Assembly: GCA_016926735.1 (NCBI GenBank) | Contig: JAFGOA010000055.1 | Span: forward strand, 1 to 10,135 | Source: Promethearchaeota archaeon | GTDB lineage: Archaea; Asgardarchaeota; Lokiarchaeia; Sigyniarchaeales; SOKP01 | Reading direction: 5' to 3' | DNA: 10,135 nt | Shown: positions 2,997 to 10,035 of the stretch, in pieces | Layout: each line of letters starts with the position of its first letter | Numbering within the stretch: the stretch's first letter is position 1 | Notes under the pieces: generated by a model | Database searches by the model: none | Told to the model about the DNA's origin: nothing | What the model saw: the letters and a program-made list of their open reading frames with translations, nothing else | Translations under genes and position numbers: made by a program

Positions 2997-4646
2997 TTAA
3001 TAATTTCCAGAGTAGATTTCTTTCTTTACTAATTCTAAATCTAAATCTTCTTGTGATTTAATATCCAAACCCCAATGGCTACAGACATCTATAGCTCTCT
3101 GAGAGATACAAGCGATATCATTTCTAGATAGAAGATCTAATTTGAATTTTCTAACACCGGCTAGTAATTGTTTTAATCCTGTTCCAAGCTTACTTTTAAA
3201 GTATGTATATACTCCTAAAGCAGATGGAGGAATTTCTTTATCTGGAAATTTTCTTTTTAGTTGGTCATATTCAACAAAAGCTTCTGCTAATGTAAGGGTA
3301 TCTGGTTCTTTTTCTTTTGGAAATCCTAAAGAACTCAACATTCCACGAGATACAGATTTTTCTTCGATCCAATCTCCAACATTTTTTGCTTTCATAGCTG
3401 CTGTTATTGGTGCACGAGCCATTGCAATACAAGTTACATATGGAGCACCCATTGCTAATGATTTAAAAATTTGTGTTTCATTAGATATTCCTCCCGCAAT
3501 TGCTACTGTTGGAATCTTTGCATTAGGTGTTTTTTTCTTGATCATATCTAAACATCCTACTGTTAATGCCTCAAGATATGCTGTAGGAATAGAACCTTCA
3601 TTCATCATACTAACTGGGCTCATTCCTGTACCTCCTCCAGCTCCATCCAATGTAAGCCCATCAACTTTTCCTTCTACCGCTAATCTTATAATCCAAGCTG
3701 TTGCAGCTGGTCGATAAGCACCTGTTTTAATAAATAAATTTTTAGCACCAGCAGATCTTAATTGGTCAATTTCTTCCAATACATCTTCAGTTGATGAAAG
3801 ACCTACTCTGCTATGTCTTTCAAAGTCAGGAATTAATCCCGCATTCCATTCTTCTATAACAGAAGGATTTGAAGGATCAGGAATTACTAGATATCCTCTT
3901 TTTTGTAATAATTGTGCTCTTTCTAAGCTACTTAATCTAACTTCTCCTCCAATTGCTTTCGCTCCTTGTCCAAATTTAATTTCTAAAGATGTACAATCCA
4001 ATTTTGAAAGTACATAGTCGAAGACACCTAATCTTGTATCTTCTACATTTTTTTGAATAATAATATCCCCATGTTTTCCATCCCAATATTCTCTAAATGC
4101 ATTAACACGATATTTCATATCTTCTGTATCGACTACTTTTGGATACATTCCTCCATTTTCGAAATGTGCATTAGGATCCATCCCTACAACATTTTCTCCA
4201 ACTGTTATACTTGTACCTGCAAGTGCAGAACCCATTGCTAATCCGTCCCAATTCCTTTTCGCTACATAAGTACTTCCCAAACCGGCAATAACAAATGGTA
4301 ATTTTTGTGGAATTTTTCCCCAAAATGTGGATATATCAGCATTTGGAAAAATAACTGAATCTTCATGAACATCTGCGATTCCTTTGGCTCCTCTAACCTC
4401 AAATTGAATCTGAAAATCTCCAAATGAGAATCCAAAATCTTTTGGAGTTCCAGCTGTTGAATTTCCAAAATATTCTCTCATTGGATATAATACTTCCCGA
4501 CCTCTTAAAGCACTTTTACTTACCTCACAAAATACAGGACAATCATAAGTACAGATTGGACATAAACCAGATTCACATGAATCTTCTACTCTTGTTCTTG
4601 TACCTATCATTGAAGATCTGTGAGTTACCATTGAAAATTTTGTCAT
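2997..4646 (-). CDS. Stand-alone FMN-binding glutamate synthase family protein with N-terminal Cys-rich motif
   Basis: GltS FMN-barrel motifs IAGLGST, TVGENVVGMDP, EIKFGQGAKAIGGE, FERHSRVG, IKTGAYRP, LTLDGAGGGTGMSP, IAGG, IFKSLAMGAPYV and MARAP. The N-terminus has C24-x4-C29-x2-C32-x3-C36-x3-C40. An SD-like AGGT lies at 4658-4655. Confidence 0.9.
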   Translation of the reverse strand: MTKFSMVTHRSSMIGTRTRVEDSCESGLCPICTYDCPVFCEVSKSALRGREVLYPMREYFGNSTAGTPKDFGFSFGDFQIQFEVRGAKGIADVHEDSVIFPNADISTFWGKIPQKLPFVIAGLGSTYVAKRNWDGLAMGSALAGTSITVGENVVGMDPNAHFENGGMYPKVVDTEDMKYRVNAFREYWDGKHGDIIIQKNVEDTRLGVFDYVLSKLDCTSLEIKFGQGAKAIGGEVRLSSLERAQLLQKRGYLVIPDPSNPSVIEEWNAGLIPDFERHSRVGLSSTEDVLEEIDQLRSAGAKNLFIKTGAYRPAATAWIIRLAVEGKVDGLTLDGAGGGTGMSPVSMMNEGSIPTAYLEALTVGCLDMIKKKTPNAKIPTVAIAGGISNETQIFKSLAMGAPYVTCIAMARAPITAAMKAKNVGDWIEEKSVSRGMLSSLGFPKEKEPDTLTLAEAFVEYDQLKRKFPDKEIPPSALGVYTYFKSKLGTGLKQLLAGVRKFKLDLLSRNDIACISQRAIDVCSHWGLDIKSQEDLDLELVKKEIYSGNY

Positions 4647-4944
4647 ATTTTTCTACCTTTTAATTTTTAATAGAACTATTTAATATTTTTCGATTTTATC
4701 ATAATTTACCTTTGAAGATCTTTAGTTCATAAAGTTTCATACAAATTATGATTAATGCTTACTATTAATTTAACATATAAATAAATAGTATTAGTTAAAC
4801 GAGTATATTAGATATACCCAATATAACAAATATAGTTTCCTAAAAATATAAAAGAATAATAAATGACCAGAAAAACTCCTTTATTTTAGATATTCAAACC
4901 TATATTTTTCTTTATTATAAAAAAATATAACTAATTATATTATT

Positions 4945-5057: not shown

Positions 5058-5149
5058 TTATTTGAATATAACTTATTAGAGTAAATATATTTTCAATACG
5101 TAAAATATATCTTTAATTATAATTAAAATAAAAATGGTGCAGTTGGGCA

Positions 5150-6475
5150 ATTCAAAAAGAAATAATTTTTTTCCCTGGATGTGTAATAAGTTATAGATTA
5201 CCATTTATCGAAGTGTCAATAAGAAAATTATTAGATCATTTTAATATCTCTATTGAAGATGACAAGAGATTTTCATGTTGTCCTGAACCAAATGGAATCA
5301 AAAATTCAAATGAATTGGTTTATTCATTGACAGCAGCTCGTAATTTAAGCATTGCTGAATCGAAAAATAAAGATATATTGACTCCGTGCAATGGGTGTTT
5401 TGAAACACTTAAAGGAATTAGAAGTGAAATTAAATCTGATTTGCATTTTAGAAATGAAATTAATGAACATCTTGAAAAAATTAATTTAAATGTGAGTGCT
5501 AAAAGTGATGTTTTTCATTTAGTTGAATTTTTTCATAAACTCGGTAGTGATATTATTAAGGATAGTATAAAATTTCCTCTTAATGGATTAAGAGTTGGCG
5601 TTCATTATGGATGTCATTTTCTCCGGCCAAGCAATAAAATTCAAATGGATGATCCTATGGAACCTCATATATTTGATGCTCTAATTGAAGATCTAGGTGC
5701 TAACAGTATTGAATATGATAGAAAAATGGATTGTTGCGGGGGAAGTTTAGATCGAGCTGGAAAAGCTGATTTTGGTTTGGAAATGGTTCATGATAAATTA
5801 GAAGCAATGAAAGATCAAAGAATTGATTGTATTGTTGTTGGTTGTCCACAATGTTTTATTCAATTTGATCACCTTCAACAAGATCTAAAAAAATTAGATT
5901 ATGTTTATGATATTCCTGTTCTATATTATTCAGAATTATTATGTATTGCTTTAGGATTAGATATAAAAGAAATTATGACGAAATATCATCGTACTCCAGT
6001 GGAAAAAGTATATGAAAAAATAGATTCAATTACCCGTAAAAATAAGTTAATTAAAGATTATTTCGATATAGAATTTTTAAAAAAATGCTTTAAATGTGGA
6101 GCATGTAATAATGATTGCCCCGTTGCTAAAATCACAGATTTTGATCCCAATAAACTTATTGGTCAGTTATTAAATGGAGATATTAACAGTGTTATTCAAG
6201 ATCCTTCTATTTGGATGTGTTTAGATTGTTTTGTTTGTTATGAATTATGTCCCTCAAAAGTTGGATTAGTAGAGATATTTACGAAACTTAGAAACCTAGC
6301 CAGAGAAAAAGGTTTCGTTGTTGAAGGATTTAGACATGAGTATGATTCTTTTAAAAAAATGGGAACAATCGCTATGTTCTCTAAAGCTGCTCGAAAAAGA
6401 GTAGGGTTGGATTCAAATAAACCTGAACTTGAAGATTTAAAAAAAATATTAAATGAAATTGAAGAGGAAAAATAA
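5150..6475 (+). CDS. hdrB: Heterodisulfide reductase subunit B - subunit C fusion (two CCG domains + C-terminal 2x[4Fe-4S] domain)
   Basis: The frame is open from 5132 (after TAA 5129) and reads IQKEIIFFPGCVISYRLPFIE upstream of the tracked GTG 5213. The first CCG domain is FFPGC...SCCPEP...TPCNGC and the second is HYGCHFLRP...DCCGG...GCPQC, followed by IPVLYYSELLCIALG. The HdrC-like part has CFKCGACNNDCP and IWMCLDCFVCYELCP. The start is uncertain (ATT 5150 assumed; see findings). Confidence 0.88.
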   Translation: MQKEIIFFPGCVISYRLPFIEVSIRKLLDHFNISIEDDKRFSCCPEPNGIKNSNELVYSLTAARNLSIAESKNKDILTPCNGCFETLKGIRSEIKSDLHFRNEINEHLEKINLNVSAKSDVFHLVEFFHKLGSDIIKDSIKFPLNGLRVGVHYGCHFLRPSNKIQMDDPMEPHIFDALIEDLGANSIEYDRKMDCCGGSLDRAGKADFGLEMVHDKLEAMKDQRIDCIVVGCPQCFIQFDHLQQDLKKLDYVYDIPVLYYSELLCIALGLDIKEIMTKYHRTPVEKVYEKIDSITRKNKLIKDYFDIEFLKKCFKCGACNNDCPVAKITDFDPNKLIGQLLNGDINSVIQDPSIWMCLDCFVCYELCPSKVGLVEIFTKLRNLAREKGFVVEGFRHEYDSFKKMGTIAMFSKAARKRVGLDSNKPELEDLKKILNEIEEEK

Positions 6476-6476
6476 G

Positions 6477-7670
6477 ATGAACTGGGAAAATTATACGAGC
6501 TTACCTGAAATATTTCAAAACCAAAGAATATTTGATGGATGTGGTATTTCTGGTTTTCTAAATATAGATGGAAAACGTGAAAGTGGAAAAAAAGTTAGGG
6601 ATATGTTATGCATTCTCCATGATCGAGAAAATGGATTAGGTGCTGGTTATGCCGGTTATGGGATCTATCCTGATTATAAAGATTATTATGCATTTCATTT
6701 CTTATTCGATGATGAGAAAAGTAAAGAGAACGTATTATCTCATTTAGAAAAAATGGGTTATATAATTCTCTCCGAAGCTATACCTACAAAAATAGTACCA
6801 AATTTGGATAATCCGCCTATTATCTGGAGAGTATTTTATGAACCAAAAAAGTTGAAAAACACTTCTGATGATGAACAGATAATATCATTAGTTATGAATA
6901 TTAATGCTAATTTTGATGGGGCATTTGTAATGTCTTCTGGAAAAAATATGGGTGTTTTTAAAGGAAATGGTTGGTCTCACGAAATTGCAGATTATTATAA
7001 AATAGAGGATTATAAAGCTTATATGTGGCTTGCCCATAGTAGATTTCCGACCAATACTCCTGGTTGGTGGGGCGGAGCCCATCCGTTTAATCTCCTTGGT
7101 ACATCTGTTGTTCATAATGGTGAAATAACCTCTTATGGTACTAATAAACGGTATCTTGAATCATTTGGCTATAAATGTACCTTATTTACTGATACTGAAG
7201 TTATCGCATATTTATTTGATTTATTAGTTAGAAGGCATAAATTACCTATATCGATAGCAAGCTTAGCTTTGGCTCCGCCATTATTTAATGACATTGAAAG
7301 AATGAGTAGTGATTTCAAAATAACATTAAAAAATATAAGAGCTACATATCGTTCAGCAATGCTTAATGGTCCATTTTCGATTGTTGTAGGACAAAACAGT
7401 CCAAAGCCTACAATGATAGGATTATCTGATCGAAAAAAATTAAGACCCTTAGTAGCAGCAATATCTAATGATGAGAATTGTATATATCTAAGCAGTGAAG
7501 AAGCAAGCTTTCAAAGATTAATGTTAAATGAAGAATTTAAAAATGAATTTAAAGAAATTTGGCATCCAAAAAGTGGAACTGCAATAATTGCCCGCCTTGG
7601 AGATGGTCTAATAAGAAAGGGTTTAGAAAAACCATTAGAAAAAATAAAATTATCAATTGTAGGAGGTTAA
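6477..7670 (+). CDS. Glutamate synthase subunit, class II (Ntn) glutamine amidotransferase domain (GltB1-like)
   Basis: Motifs DGCGISG (nucleophile Cys, codon 6540), HDRENGLGAGYAGYG, SSGKNMGVFKG, AHSRFPTNTPGWWGGAHPF, VHNGEITSYG, TDTEV, LNGPFS and DRKKLRPL. ATG 6477 is 1 nt after the hdrBC stop, with GAGG at 6464-6467, so it is preferred over 6453. Confidence 0.92.
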   Translation: MNWENYTSLPEIFQNQRIFDGCGISGFLNIDGKRESGKKVRDMLCILHDRENGLGAGYAGYGIYPDYKDYYAFHFLFDDEKSKENVLSHLEKMGYIILSEAIPTKIVPNLDNPPIIWRVFYEPKKLKNTSDDEQIISLVMNINANFDGAFVMSSGKNMGVFKGNGWSHEIADYYKIEDYKAYMWLAHSRFPTNTPGWWGGAHPFNLLGTSVVHNGEITSYGTNKRYLESFGYKCTLFTDTEVIAYLFDLLVRRHKLPISIASLALAPPLFNDIERMSSDFKITLKNIRATYRSAMLNGPFSIVVGQNSPKPTMIGLSDRKKLRPLVAAISNDENCIYLSSEEASFQRLMLNEEFKNEFKEIWHPKSGTAIIARLGDGLIRKGLEKPLEKIKLSIVGG

Positions 7671-7673
7671 AAA

Positions 7674-9197
7674 ATGTCATTAGAGCATAATATACCAAGT
7701 TATTTTCGAGTAAAAATTGATACTAAATATTGTAAAAAATGTAAAAGATGTGTTTCTCATTGTAGCTATGGAGCACTTTCCTTTAATAATGAAAAAATAG
7801 TATCTGATGATTCAAAATGTGTAGCTTGTAATCGATGTGCTGCTATGTGTCCTGGAAAAGCAATTCGAATAGTTAAGGATGAATCTTGCTTGCCTCCTCA
7901 TGGAAATTACACTCGCAGAATACGGAATATTATTTGGGCACAATCAGGTTCTGGAGGTGTTCTTTTAAGCGCTACCGGAAATGATCGTCCCATCAGAAAT
8001 ATTTTTGATGACTTATTACTTGATGCTTGTCAAGTTACTAATCCATCCATTGATCCACTCAGAGAATCTATTGAAACTAAAATATTTTTTGGTAGAAAAC
8101 CGCAAAGACTTGATTTTGAAACAGATTCTTTAGATCCTGAAAAAATATCCCTTAAGACAGAATTTCTTCCAAATTTCGAAATAGATATGCCCTTGATGGT
8201 TGGACATATGAGTTTGGGATCAATAAGTTATAATGCTTGTATGGCAATTTATCAAGCAGTCAATGAATTAAATATATTAGCTGGTTCTGGAGAAGGGGGA
8301 TTACATCCTGATTTTTATGAATATGGAAAAAATATAATAACCGAAGTTGCTTCCGGAAGATTTGGAGTGGATATCAAATATCTACAAAATACAGCAGGTT
8401 TGGAGATAAAAATAGGTCAAGGTGCAAAACCTGGGCATGGTGGGCATTTACCTGGAGAAAAAGTAAATAGCTTAATATCACAAACTCGGATGATCCCAAA
8501 AGGTTCTGATGCATTAAGTCCATATCCTCATCATGATATCTATTCTATAGAAGATCTTGCCCAATTAATCGCAGCACTAAAAGAAGCAACAAGATATAAA
8601 GTTCCAATTGGTGTAAAAATTGCTGCTGTTCATAATAGTGCACCAATTGCTGTGGGAATTGTAAGGGGTGGTGCTGATTTTATTTCTATTGATGGTTTTA
8701 GAGGAGGTACTGGCGCCGCTCCAAGAATTATTCGAGATCATGCGGGAATTCCTATAGAACTTGCAATAGCTTCTGTAGATCAAAGACTTCGACAAGAAGG
8801 TTTAAGAGATCAAGTAACGATTGTAGCAGGAGGATCAATACGTTATTCTGCAGATTTAATCAAAGCTATAGCTTTAGGTGCTGATGTTGGAATGGTTGGT
8901 ATGCCCGTTTTAATAGCACTAGGGTGTAGAGTTTGCCAACAATGCTTTAGAGGCTTATGCAGTTGGGGAATTGCTACTCAAAAACCTTATTTGGTAAAAA
9001 GATTAGATATTGATGTTGCTAGAAATAGATTAATCAATCTTTTCCATTCATGGAATGAAGAATTAAAGGAAATTTTAGGAGCAATGGGTATTGATTCTGT
9101 TGAATCTTTAAGATCAAATAGAGATAGATTACGATACATCGGCCCAAATCCAAAAATTGCAGATATTTTAAATGTAAAACATGCAGGTGAAATATAA
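7674..9197 (+). CDS. Glutamate synthase subunit, 2x[4Fe-4S] ferredoxin + FMN-binding synthase domain (GltB2-like, archaeal type)
   Basis: Ferredoxin motifs CKKCKRCVSHC and CVACNRCAAMCP; synthase motifs QVTNPSIDPLRE, MSLGSIS, GSGEGG, VASGRFGV, EIKIGQGAKPGHGGHLPGEKV, HHDIYSIEDL, DGFRGGTGAAP and KAIALGAD; Fe-S motif GCRVCQQCFRGLCSWGIATQ. SD AGGAGG at 7661-7666. Confidence 0.95.
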   Translation: MSLEHNIPSYFRVKIDTKYCKKCKRCVSHCSYGALSFNNEKIVSDDSKCVACNRCAAMCPGKAIRIVKDESCLPPHGNYTRRIRNIIWAQSGSGGVLLSATGNDRPIRNIFDDLLLDACQVTNPSIDPLRESIETKIFFGRKPQRLDFETDSLDPEKISLKTEFLPNFEIDMPLMVGHMSLGSISYNACMAIYQAVNELNILAGSGEGGLHPDFYEYGKNIITEVASGRFGVDIKYLQNTAGLEIKIGQGAKPGHGGHLPGEKVNSLISQTRMIPKGSDALSPYPHHDIYSIEDLAQLIAALKEATRYKVPIGVKIAAVHNSAPIAVGIVRGGADFISIDGFRGGTGAAPRIIRDHAGIPIELAIASVDQRLRQEGLRDQVTIVAGGSIRYSADLIKAIALGADVGMVGMPVLIALGCRVCQQCFRGLCSWGIATQKPYLVKRLDIDVARNRLINLFHSWNEELKEILGAMGIDSVESLRSNRDRLRYIGPNPKIADILNVKHAGEI

Positions 9198-9201
9198 TAA
9201 A

Positions 9202-10035
9202 ATGACAGAAAATATTACCAAAGAAAAAAAAAGGATAAATAACAATAATAATCCAATTACGATTAATTGTGCGCCAAATGGCGACCCGCTAGATTATCGA
9301 GTATTGAATGAAGAAATACATCAATCTCTAAATTCAGGATATAATAAAATTATTCTAAATAATGTCTGTGGTCAAAGATTTATCGGGGCGTCTCTTCAAG
9401 GCGATTTAGAAATAGAGATTAATGGAGTTCCTGGAAATGATTTAGGAATCTTTATGGATGGACCAAAAATAACAGTGAATGGTAGTTGTGAAGATCAAGC
9501 AGGAAACACAATGAATGATGGTACAATTATTATTCATGGAGATGGTGGTGATGTTATTGGATTATCAGCTAGAGGTGGTAAAATTTACATAAAAAAAAAT
9601 GTTGGGTATAGAGTAGGAATTCACATTAAAGAATATGAAAGAAAATATCCTGTAATTATTATTGGGGGGACTGCTCGAGATTTTTTAGGTGAATATATGG
9701 CTGGTGGTCTGGTTGTTGTTCTTGGCTTAAAATTTTTACCAAATGGAAAGATTATAGAAAATGATATGTCTATCTGTGGAAATGAGTTAGGAACTGGAAT
9801 ACACAGAGGAAAAATAATTTTAAGAACAGAAGAAGATTTGGAACCAAAATTAGGAGTAGGAGCCAAATTATTTACGCCTGATGAAATTGAATTAAAACAA
9901 ATTGAGATATATCTTAAAGAATATTGTAGAATCTTTAACATTCCTTATGAATTAATAACTCAAAAACCATTTAAAGGAGTAATACCTATTTCAAAACGAC
10001 CCTTTGCTGGGAGTTACTGTGGACAGTTGATATAA
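9202..10035 (+). CDS. Glutamate synthase subunit, GXGXG beta-helix domain (GltB3-like)
   Basis: Motifs NVCGQRFIG, INGVPGNDLGIFMDG, EDQAGNTMNDG, IHGDGGDVIG, NVGYRVGIHIKEY, ARDFLGEYMAGG and GTGIHRGKI. ATG 9202 follows the gltB2 stop (9197) and SD AGGTGA (9185-9190), so it is preferred over 9181. Confidence 0.92.
   Translation: MTENITKEKKRINNNNNPITINCAPNGDPLDYRVLNEEIHQSLNSGYNKIILNNVCGQRFIGASLQGDLEIEINGVPGNDLGIFMDGPKITVNGSCEDQAGNTMNDGTIIIHGDGGDVIGLSARGGKIYIKKNVGYRVGIHIKEYERKYPVIIIGGTARDFLGEYMAGGLVVVLGLKFLPNGKIIENDMSICGNELGTGIHRGKIILRTEEDLEPKLGVGAKLFTPDEIELKQIEIYLKEYCRIFNIPYELITQKPFKGVIPISKRPFAGSYCGQLI

Follow-up and report, generated by a model that had tools for sequence, protein, structure and literature searches.

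Characterized glutamate synthases (GltS, also termed GOGAT) use NAD(P)H or ferredoxin as electron donor, and coenzyme F420 has been proposed as a further donor from gene context only. Here we describe a compact operon on contig JAFGOA010000055.1 of a Promethearchaeota archaeon, in which the three genes of a split-type glutamate synthase, gltB1, gltB2 and gltB3, are headed by a gene (hdrBC) for a fused protein resembling subunits HdrB and HdrC of heterodisulfide reductase (Hdr). The window, i.e. the whole contig (C82) of 10,135 bp, belongs to a genome of 3.88 Mb in 238 contigs that is 99.3% complete.

Several described systems share parts of this operon. Bacterial NADPH-dependent GltS (GltB plus GltD) and ferredoxin-dependent GltS (PDB 7mfm, 1ea0, 1llw) have the same catalytic core, made up of the amidotransferase, the flavin mononucleotide (FMN) domain that bears an Fe-S cluster, and the GXGXG part. 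In the present locus, however, three separate genes encode this core, GltB2 has two [4Fe-4S] clusters of its own, and GltD is lacking. In methanogen clusters, split GltS genes are likewise preceded by an input subunit, and an FrhB-like "subunit 4" was proposed to make GltS F420-dependent. In PMC3087415 and PMC3448663, the function of these FGltS(I) and FGltS(II) enzymes, which were unpurified, was assigned from gene context. Their input subunit is FrhB/FdhB-like, for F420H2, whereas that of the present locus is HdrBC-like and the host has its own FrhB-like genes on other contigs.

With regard to HdrABC (PDB 5odc, 7bkb, 8rvu), the HdrB fold, the ten ligands of the non-cubane clusters and the HdrC dicluster domain all recur in HdrBC. 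In contrast to HdrABC, the two halves are fused in the order B-then-C, no HdrA is encoded at the locus, the scores stay below the equivalog cut-offs, and the host is not a methanogen. In the thiol:fumarate reductase TfrAB of Methanobacteriales, an HdrB-like CCG module feeds thiol electrons to a flavoenzyme. The resemblance lies in a double-CCG module of HdrB type that is proposed to pass thiol electrons via Fe-S clusters to a biosynthetic flavin. TfrB, however, consists of an SdhB-like N-terminus followed by CCG, whereas the HdrB part precedes HdrC in the present protein, whose partner would be a glutamate synthase. Only the CCG part of HdrBC matches the TfrB model NF004898 (67.1 bits against a cut-off of 385). 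The present host also differs in showing no ComA, an enzyme of coenzyme M (CoM) synthesis.

The HdrBC-headed operon and its products

All four genes are located on the forward strand and together span positions 5150-10035, or 4.9 kb (Table 1). The gene content and tight spacing given in an earlier, sequence-based reading of this DNA (the original prediction) were borne out. The TAA of hdrBC is separated by 1 nt from the ATG of gltB1, the gap between gltB1 and gltB2 is 3 nt, and that between gltB2 and gltB3 is 4 nt. Each of the three internal genes starts with ATG and is preceded by a motif resembling a Shine-Dalgarno (SD) sequence (GAGG, GGAGGT and GGTGA, respectively).

The HdrB-like half of the hdrBC product (residues 1 to ~296) contains two CCG motifs, and the HdrC-like half fused to it (~306-438) contains two [4Fe-4S] motifs. 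Pfam detected two CCG stretches (PF02754, 5.4e-23) and a 4Fe-4S dicluster domain (Fer4_8, 1.6e-10). The top NCBIfam matches were HdrB (TIGR03288, 236.5 bits, residues 3-270) and HdrC (TIGR03290, 88.2 bits, residues 290-417), neither of which reached the equivalog cut-off (345.15 and 160 bits, respectively). Among structures in the PDB, the HdrB chains 8rvu_b (5e-62) and 5odc_B (5e-53) and the HdrC chain 5odc_C (7e-19) were matched.

Both CX(31-39)CCX(35-36)CXXC motifs, with ten cysteines in all, are present in HdrBC together with the two [4Fe-4S] motifs of HdrC. The ten cysteines of the HdrB half (Cys 11, 43, 44, 80, 83, 155, 195, 196, 232 and 235) align with the cluster ligands of solved HdrB structures. 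In an alignment of 31 sequences, with identities down to 37%, all ten were invariant or near-invariant, and the same was true of the eight cysteines of the HdrC half (Cys 313, 316, 319, 323, 357, 360, 363 and 367). The general fold was modeled with AlphaFold2 (pLDDT 88.9, pTM 0.82). The model superimposed on HdrB chains with TM scores (target) of 0.92-0.93 and root-mean-square deviations of 1.7-1.9 Å, and on HdrC with TM scores of 0.52-0.62. Since the ligands of the HdrB-type clusters are all intact, thiol/disulfide chemistry at the HdrB half would be possible.

Public annotations of this protein read only "4Fe-4S dicluster domain-containing", "heterodisulfide reductase-related" or "HdrB/C". 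A search of protein representatives returned about 25 clusters of full-length B-then-C fusions with 33-58% identity, given without taxonomy. A protein atlas held look-alike clusters with CCG and Fer4 domains, many of them bacterial, for which the domain order is not given.

GltB1 has a conserved leader of 21 residues, which would be cleaved off ahead of the DG-CGISGF nucleophile motif. In GltB2, the PF01645 match spans positions 5-368 of the 369 in the profile, and the large chains of GltS in the PDB were matched at 4.5e-62. Its N-terminal 2x[4Fe-4S] domain (Cys 20, 23, 26, 30, 49, 52, 55 and 59) and the Cys4 cluster motif of the FMN domain (Cys 418, 421, 424 and 429) were invariant in 21 sequences. 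This gltB2 is the sole full GltB2 gene of the genome. The amidotransferase, the FMN/Fe-S domain and the GXGXG subunit of a split archaeal glutamate synthase thus all appear to be encoded, and no solved structure of such a split enzyme was among the PDB matches to GltB2.

Table 1. Features of the window, with positions counted from the first nucleotide of the contig.
Feature	Position	Strand	Description
hdrBC-like gene	5150..6475	+	441 aa, ATT start; Pfam, NCBIfam and PDB matches, AlphaFold2 (AF2) model
gltB1	6477..7670	+	predicted class-II (N-terminal nucleophile, Ntn) glutamine amidotransferase; GATase_2 1.9e-10
gltB2	7674..9197	+	predicted FMN/2-oxoglutarate subunit; Glu_synthase PF01645 1e-128, plus Fer4 families
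gltB3	9202..10035	+	GXGXG beta-helix subunit, PF01493 1.5e-30; last gene of the operon
ATATAAC-N12-ATATA	5066..5089	+	candidate operator/promoter element, 60 nt 5' of the hdrBC start
549-aa GltB2-like gene	2997-4646	-	divergent from hdrBC
guaA	66-1655	+	fused, glutamine-hydrolysing GMP synthase

Conservation of the arrangement in Asgard archaea

The arrangement was followed in 32 related loci (L009-L040) from species-representative genomes, or 33 loci when the window is counted, and in a sample of 201 Asgard genomes (G-numbers). In the latter, counts of the fusion refer to the matches listed, and weaker fusions are possible. All 32 related loci came from Promethearchaeota, Lokiarchaeota or other Asgard metagenome-assembled genomes (MAGs), with HdrBC identities of 58-95%. 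Named protein hits agreed with this, and the host is an Asgard (Lokiarchaeia-like) archaeon and not a methanogen.

The order hdrBC-gltB1-gltB2-gltB3 was kept in 22 of the 23 related loci with enough contig, and the other nine of the 32, broken by a contig end, were consistent as far as their sequence goes. A start codon of gltB1 (ATG, GTG or TTG) aligned with that of the window in 21 of 22 loci. Measured from the hdrBC stop, this aligned start was at -4 to +26 nt in 20 loci and at +78 nt in L022. When the nearest in-frame start was taken instead, the distance was -23 to +26 nt in 21 of the 22 loci, with L022 again at +78 nt. Locus L027 has a gap of about 527 nt (10473-10999) between gltB1 and gltB2, against 3-20 nt in the others.

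In the sample of 201 genomes, a full-length fusion was found in 17, one of them cut at a contig end. Eleven of the 17, including the one at the contig end, were 61-100% identical to the fusion of the window, and six were 38-39% identical. An orthologue of the Fer4-containing GltB2 was present in all 17. In 14 of them hdrBC and gltB2 were about 1.2 kb apart on the same contig, and in the remaining three they were on separate contigs, at or near the ends. The distant genomes G038, G047, G076 and G041 share the four-gene order, with HdrBC 38-39% and GltB2 56-59% identical. No fusion was located away from gltB genes in the examined loci with room, save the broken locus L021. GltB2 itself was matched at E<=1e-60 in 39 of the 201 genomes, leaving 162 without it, and 21 of the matches were full-length orthologues with at least 52% identity.

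Because it recurs across Asgard genomes, the four-gene arrangement is far beyond chance. The original prediction held that hdrBC belongs with gltB1-gltB2-gltB3 and had made its case depend on whether the adjacency holds in relatives. Order and stop-start spacing were conserved in the related loci, as in one unit, and the order also in genomes as distant as those with 38-39% HdrBC identity.

The related loci also gave information on the region behind gltB3, where the original prediction had seen no forward-strand gene. The window itself stops with the contig end, 100 nt past gltB3. In 19 relatives with downstream DNA, the next open reading frame (ORF) was convergent in 13 and on the forward strand in six. 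The gap was 126-456 nt in five of these six and about 12 nt in L034. Neither GltD nor FrhB was among the five forward-strand ORFs that were scanned; one was a Na/Ca exchanger, and four were without a Pfam family.

A probable electron-input slot in front of gltB1

A second type of gltB cluster was found in Asgard genomes G041 (L063, contig C4), G020 (L061, C130) and G058 (L062, C21), and G041 has both kinds. It consists of glnA, a flavoprotein gene with Pyr_redox_2 and Rubredoxin_C domains, gltB1, gltB2, gltB3 and a gene for a 2x[4Fe-4S] protein. The core is the same as in the HdrBC-headed operon, GltB2 being 52-53% identical, and in this cluster, too, a redox gene is located directly 5' of gltB1, which it overlaps. 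The difference lies in the input: an NAD(P)H/FAD flavoprotein (453-461 aa) and a separate small dicluster ferredoxin (157-160 aa) are found there in place of HdrB and HdrC. The flavoprotein module also differs from classical GltD.

The slot directly 5' of gltB1 is occupied either by a flavoprotein of NAD(P)H type, with a separate dicluster protein, or by HdrB fused to a dicluster domain, and no examined cluster carries two input genes. The slot looks like an electron-input position. The strongest argument that HdrBC would act as an electron-input module is that paralogous clusters hold a flavoprotein in the same place. This parallel matches the picture of swappable input subunits drawn for methanogens in PMC3087415 and PMC3448663.

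In agreement with the original prediction, no gene for HdrA, GltD or FrhB was found in the window, within the cluster or beside it, nor in the related loci scanned. Elsewhere in the genome there are three FrhB-like genes, two on C231 and one on C110 (FrhB_FdhB_C matches), while Fer4_20 was matched on C171, C13 and C231 only. The match on C13 is inside a fused ORF of 918 aa. The lone GltD-like gene, on C171, adjoins a PyrK-like gene, as in the Nfn/Sud arrangement, and recruitment of a GltD from elsewhere as small subunit was judged unlikely because of this pairing. The genome also holds four HdrA genes (C207, C228, C231 and C50) versus two canonical hdrC-hdrB sets (C207 and C142). HdrA-like genes contain in-frame stops at C231 21774-23696 (two TGA), C50 71751-73682 (one TGA) and C207 2926-4884 (one TAA), of which the TGA codons may be selenocysteine codons.

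A possible thiol-dependent glutamate synthase

From the evidence of gene order and of the shared slot, HdrBC is probably a functional partner of the glutamate synthase. Given such a partnership, we would place the chance that the donor is a thiol or dithiol as even. The reading that we favour over any other single one, although it falls slightly short of an even chance as a whole, is a four-subunit, assimilatory, split-type GOGAT in which HdrBC takes electrons from a thiol or dithiol and conducts them to FMN. The physical complex, the electron path, the donor and the direction are in each case what we infer.

In this mechanism the HdrBC-like fusion would serve as the electron-input module in place of GltD (for NAD(P)H) or an FrhB-like subunit (for F420). 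The donor would be a thiol or dithiol other than CoM and coenzyme B (CoB), perhaps the redox couple that Asgard HdrABC complexes also serve, and the pair of non-cubane [4Fe-4S] clusters in the HdrB half would oxidise it. From there the electrons would travel along the [4Fe-4S] pair in the HdrC half, then the N-terminal [4Fe-4S] pair in GltB2 and finally the Cys4 cluster in its FMN domain before reaching FMN. FMN would in turn reduce 2-iminoglutarate, the product of 2-oxoglutarate and the ammonia that GltB1 sets free. A cluster chain of this kind, from the HdrB site to FMN, appears chemically plausible. Thiol/disulfide couples have potentials of roughly -0.14 to -0.29 V and 2-oxoglutarate + NH4+/glutamate is near -0.1 V, with glutamine hydrolysis adding pull. 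The thiol-donor mechanism as such is plausible, if somewhat less than evenly probable. Its more specific form is held more tentatively: an Asgard thiol-dependent GOGAT with a low-molecular or protein dithiol carrier, kept reduced by HdrABC-type complexes and oxidised by the HdrBC-like subunit.

Several observations weigh against this mechanism. It would need a contact between HdrBC and GltB2, and proteins in which HdrBC is fused into a longer chain, an HdrBC-GltB fusion included, were not found at E<=1e-10, which is weak evidence. To our knowledge, a thiol substrate is unproven for the CCG-domain proteins LutA, GlcF, GlpC and SdhE. The range over which the arrangement was covered lies within Asgard archaea only. 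In L021 (2722-7685), gltB2-gltB3 are missing behind hdrBC-gltB1 and their place is taken by unrelated DNA and AT-rich non-coding sequence, owing either to rearrangement or to a chimeric MAG contig. An orphan HdrA could also dock at HdrBC-GltB.

Further points against it concern the redox partner and the loss of hdrBC. ComA (PF02679) was not found in the 99.3% complete genome by a search that left other CoM routes and the CoB genes outside, and DsrC was not found in the genome either; neither CoM/CoB nor DsrC was retained as redox partner. For an Asgard archaeon in which ComA was not found, the CoM/CoB couple that the original prediction had in mind is an unlikely donor. GcvH is encoded on C17, which is uninformative on the redox partner.

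In two genomes, G083 (100% complete) and G195 (81% complete), hdrBC has been lost while intact gltB1 and gltB2 remain at 79% identity. G083 (L059, C81) retains gltB3 and a 53-residue remnant of the HdrC tail (8193-8351, reverse strand), and in G195 (L060, C19) small unrelated ORFs are found in place of hdrBC. Only five of 16 sampled genomes of their genus have GltB2. The loss may represent ongoing decay, or GltB123 may draw directly on ferredoxin; since both genomes keep the gltB genes, HdrBC is not indispensable and GltB123 can persist alone.

Alternative explanations

An unlikely alternative, if the one that fares best, keeps HdrBC in the GOGAT complex without thiol chemistry. HdrBC would then be an Fe-S dock for an HdrA-type or other flavoprotein, a hydrogenase module or ferredoxin, and the true donor would be H2, NAD(P)H, F420H2 or ferredoxin. 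HdrC wires HdrA to HdrB in solved HdrABC complexes, the surplus of HdrA genes over HdrB/HdrC sets leaves partnerless HdrA copies, and one HdrA on C231 is encoded near an FrhB-like gene. However, HdrA and other flavoproteins are unlinked to the cluster in all loci examined. A pure wire would not be expected to preserve all ten non-cubane ligands strictly across deep divergence, as HdrBC does, and the usual HdrA-facing side would be occupied if the HdrC half contacts GltB2.

Less likely still, the two parts could be mere neighbours. GltB123 would be a ferredoxin-dependent GOGAT served by its own Fer4 domain, and the co-transcribed HdrBC would work separately, e.g. on a thiol pool that nitrogen-limited cells require and that it would re-reduce or oxidise. 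The retention of gltB1-gltB2(-gltB3) without hdrBC in G083 and G195, the lack of a fusion between the two parts and the ferredoxin-like entry domain already present in GltB2 are all compatible with this. Against it stand the GltB2 orthologue in every fusion-bearing genome among the matches listed, the conserved coupling of hdrBC to gltB1 (1-26 nt), the NAD(P)H flavoprotein that the paralogous clusters have at this position, and the fusion never being located away from gltB in loci with room, L021 apart.

As to the direction of the reaction, glnA, the gene of glutamine synthetase (GS), was present within the 8-kb flanks of 11 of the 32 loci. It is directly 5' of hdrBC in G038, convergent downstream in G076, and heads the flavoprotein-type clusters; in the host genome itself the two glnA genes are on C75 and C44. 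The upstream element of hdrBC offers a second link. ATATAAC occurs at most 200 nt 5' of hdrBC in 22 of the 33 loci, often paired at a distance of 9, 19 or 39 nt, and the glnA gene on C75 is preceded by an ATATAAC-N13-ATATAAC pair (4833-4877, reverse strand) at about -47 and -27. The spacer bases TTATTAGAG are common to the hdrBC element and the C75 pair.

Only seven exact ATATAAC pairs exist genome-wide. The relaxed motif ATATAAC-N11-13-ATATA was not enriched in the genome (23 sites vs 50-59 in shuffled sequences), so that its interest lies in position alone. A scan for bacterial-type promoters and terminators gave 26 sites vs 33 expected, the consensus being bacterial and the host archaeal. 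The ATATAAC repeat would be a candidate nitrogen-regulon operator or promoter element, possibly for a shared regulator. On the strength of the glnA linkage, the retained CGISGF cysteine of GltB1 and the upstream motif common to glnA, a role in GS-GOGAT assimilation is favoured.

The least probable alternative, also raised in the original prediction, is the reverse reaction, in which glutamate is oxidised at the FMN of GltB2, a disulfide is reduced at HdrB and the reduced thiol passes to a confurcating HdrABC-hydrogenase in amino-acid fermentation. It is compatible with the canonical HdrABC genes of the genome, with descriptions of such Asgard archaea as amino-acid fermenters and with the reversibility of the HdrB reaction that the TfrB and HdrB cases illustrate. 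Retention of GltB1 with CGISGF and of GltB3, the glnA linkage with the shared upstream motif, and the absence of the cluster from 162 of the 201 genomes at E<=1e-60, which fits accessory assimilation rather than core catabolism, all disfavour it.

Significance

The modules are known and the combination appears to be undescribed, so that we regard the locus as encoding a candidate HdrBC-headed glutamate synthase. No paper linking an HdrBC or CCG protein to glutamate synthase was found in full-text literature searches, which did not cover supplements. If the favoured mechanism is true, thiols would join NAD(P)H, ferredoxin and the putative F420 as a fourth kind of electron source for GOGAT, and an enzyme central to nitrogen assimilation would gain a new type of donor through a conserved HdrBC input module.

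Asgard archaea have many Hdr-like genes, and we know of no heterodisulfide in them. The enzyme would be the first physiological sink to be assigned to Hdr-type thiol chemistry in a relative of eukaryotes that is not a methanogen, and a biosynthetic enzyme wired to an HdrB site would provide GOGAT activity as an assay to hunt for the Asgard thiol. With four genes in 4.9 kb, anaerobic heterologous expression and cryo-electron microscopy are realistic.

The ATT start codon of hdrBC

In the automatic ORF list hdrBC opens at GTG 5213 (5213-6475), which cuts off the first cluster-ligand cysteine, that of the FPGC motif and the counterpart of the first HdrB ligand. The frame is open from 5132 and contains no ATG, GTG or TTG ahead of this cysteine; position 5134 does carry an ATG, which is out of frame. 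Of the 33 loci, 27 show ATT where the window has it (5150), while six loci (L018, L019, L020, L025, L027 and L037) have ATG there or no more than two codons away. No canonical start exists anywhere in the open frame before the FPGC motif in 18 of the 33 loci, and the ATT of L023 and L024 comes directly after a stop codon. An SD-like GGTG, GGAGG or GAGGT is found 8-12 nt 5' of the ATT start.

Because the N-terminus with the first ligand cysteine is encoded 5' of 5213 and relatives share the ATT, we conclude from the aligned loci that hdrBC begins at ATT 5150 (5150-5152), which would be a conserved initiation codon, and the start chosen in the original prediction is thereby upheld. A frameshift or pseudogene at the 5' end was rejected in view of the frame being open from 5132, the conserved N-terminus and the shared ATT. 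ATT may throttle the translation of the first gene of the operon. Gene callers truncate or misplace the hdrBC start, a database record of 420 aa being one example.

Neighbouring genes

The GC content of the window is 24-36%. A 503-nt spacer 5' of the operon is followed by the 549-aa GltB2-like gene on the opposite strand, a gene of the C45 family, and guaA. The latter neighbours the cluster in 10 of the 32 loci, either up- or downstream. The 549-aa protein gave no match among NCBIfam models and has no relative in the PDB; its sole match is a partial one to Glu_synthase (FMN domain, 4e-15), and its N-terminus bears a Cys-rich motif. Its gene is a conserved neighbour in L009, L011, L015 and L026, and a fragment of it is found 3' of gltB3 in L032.

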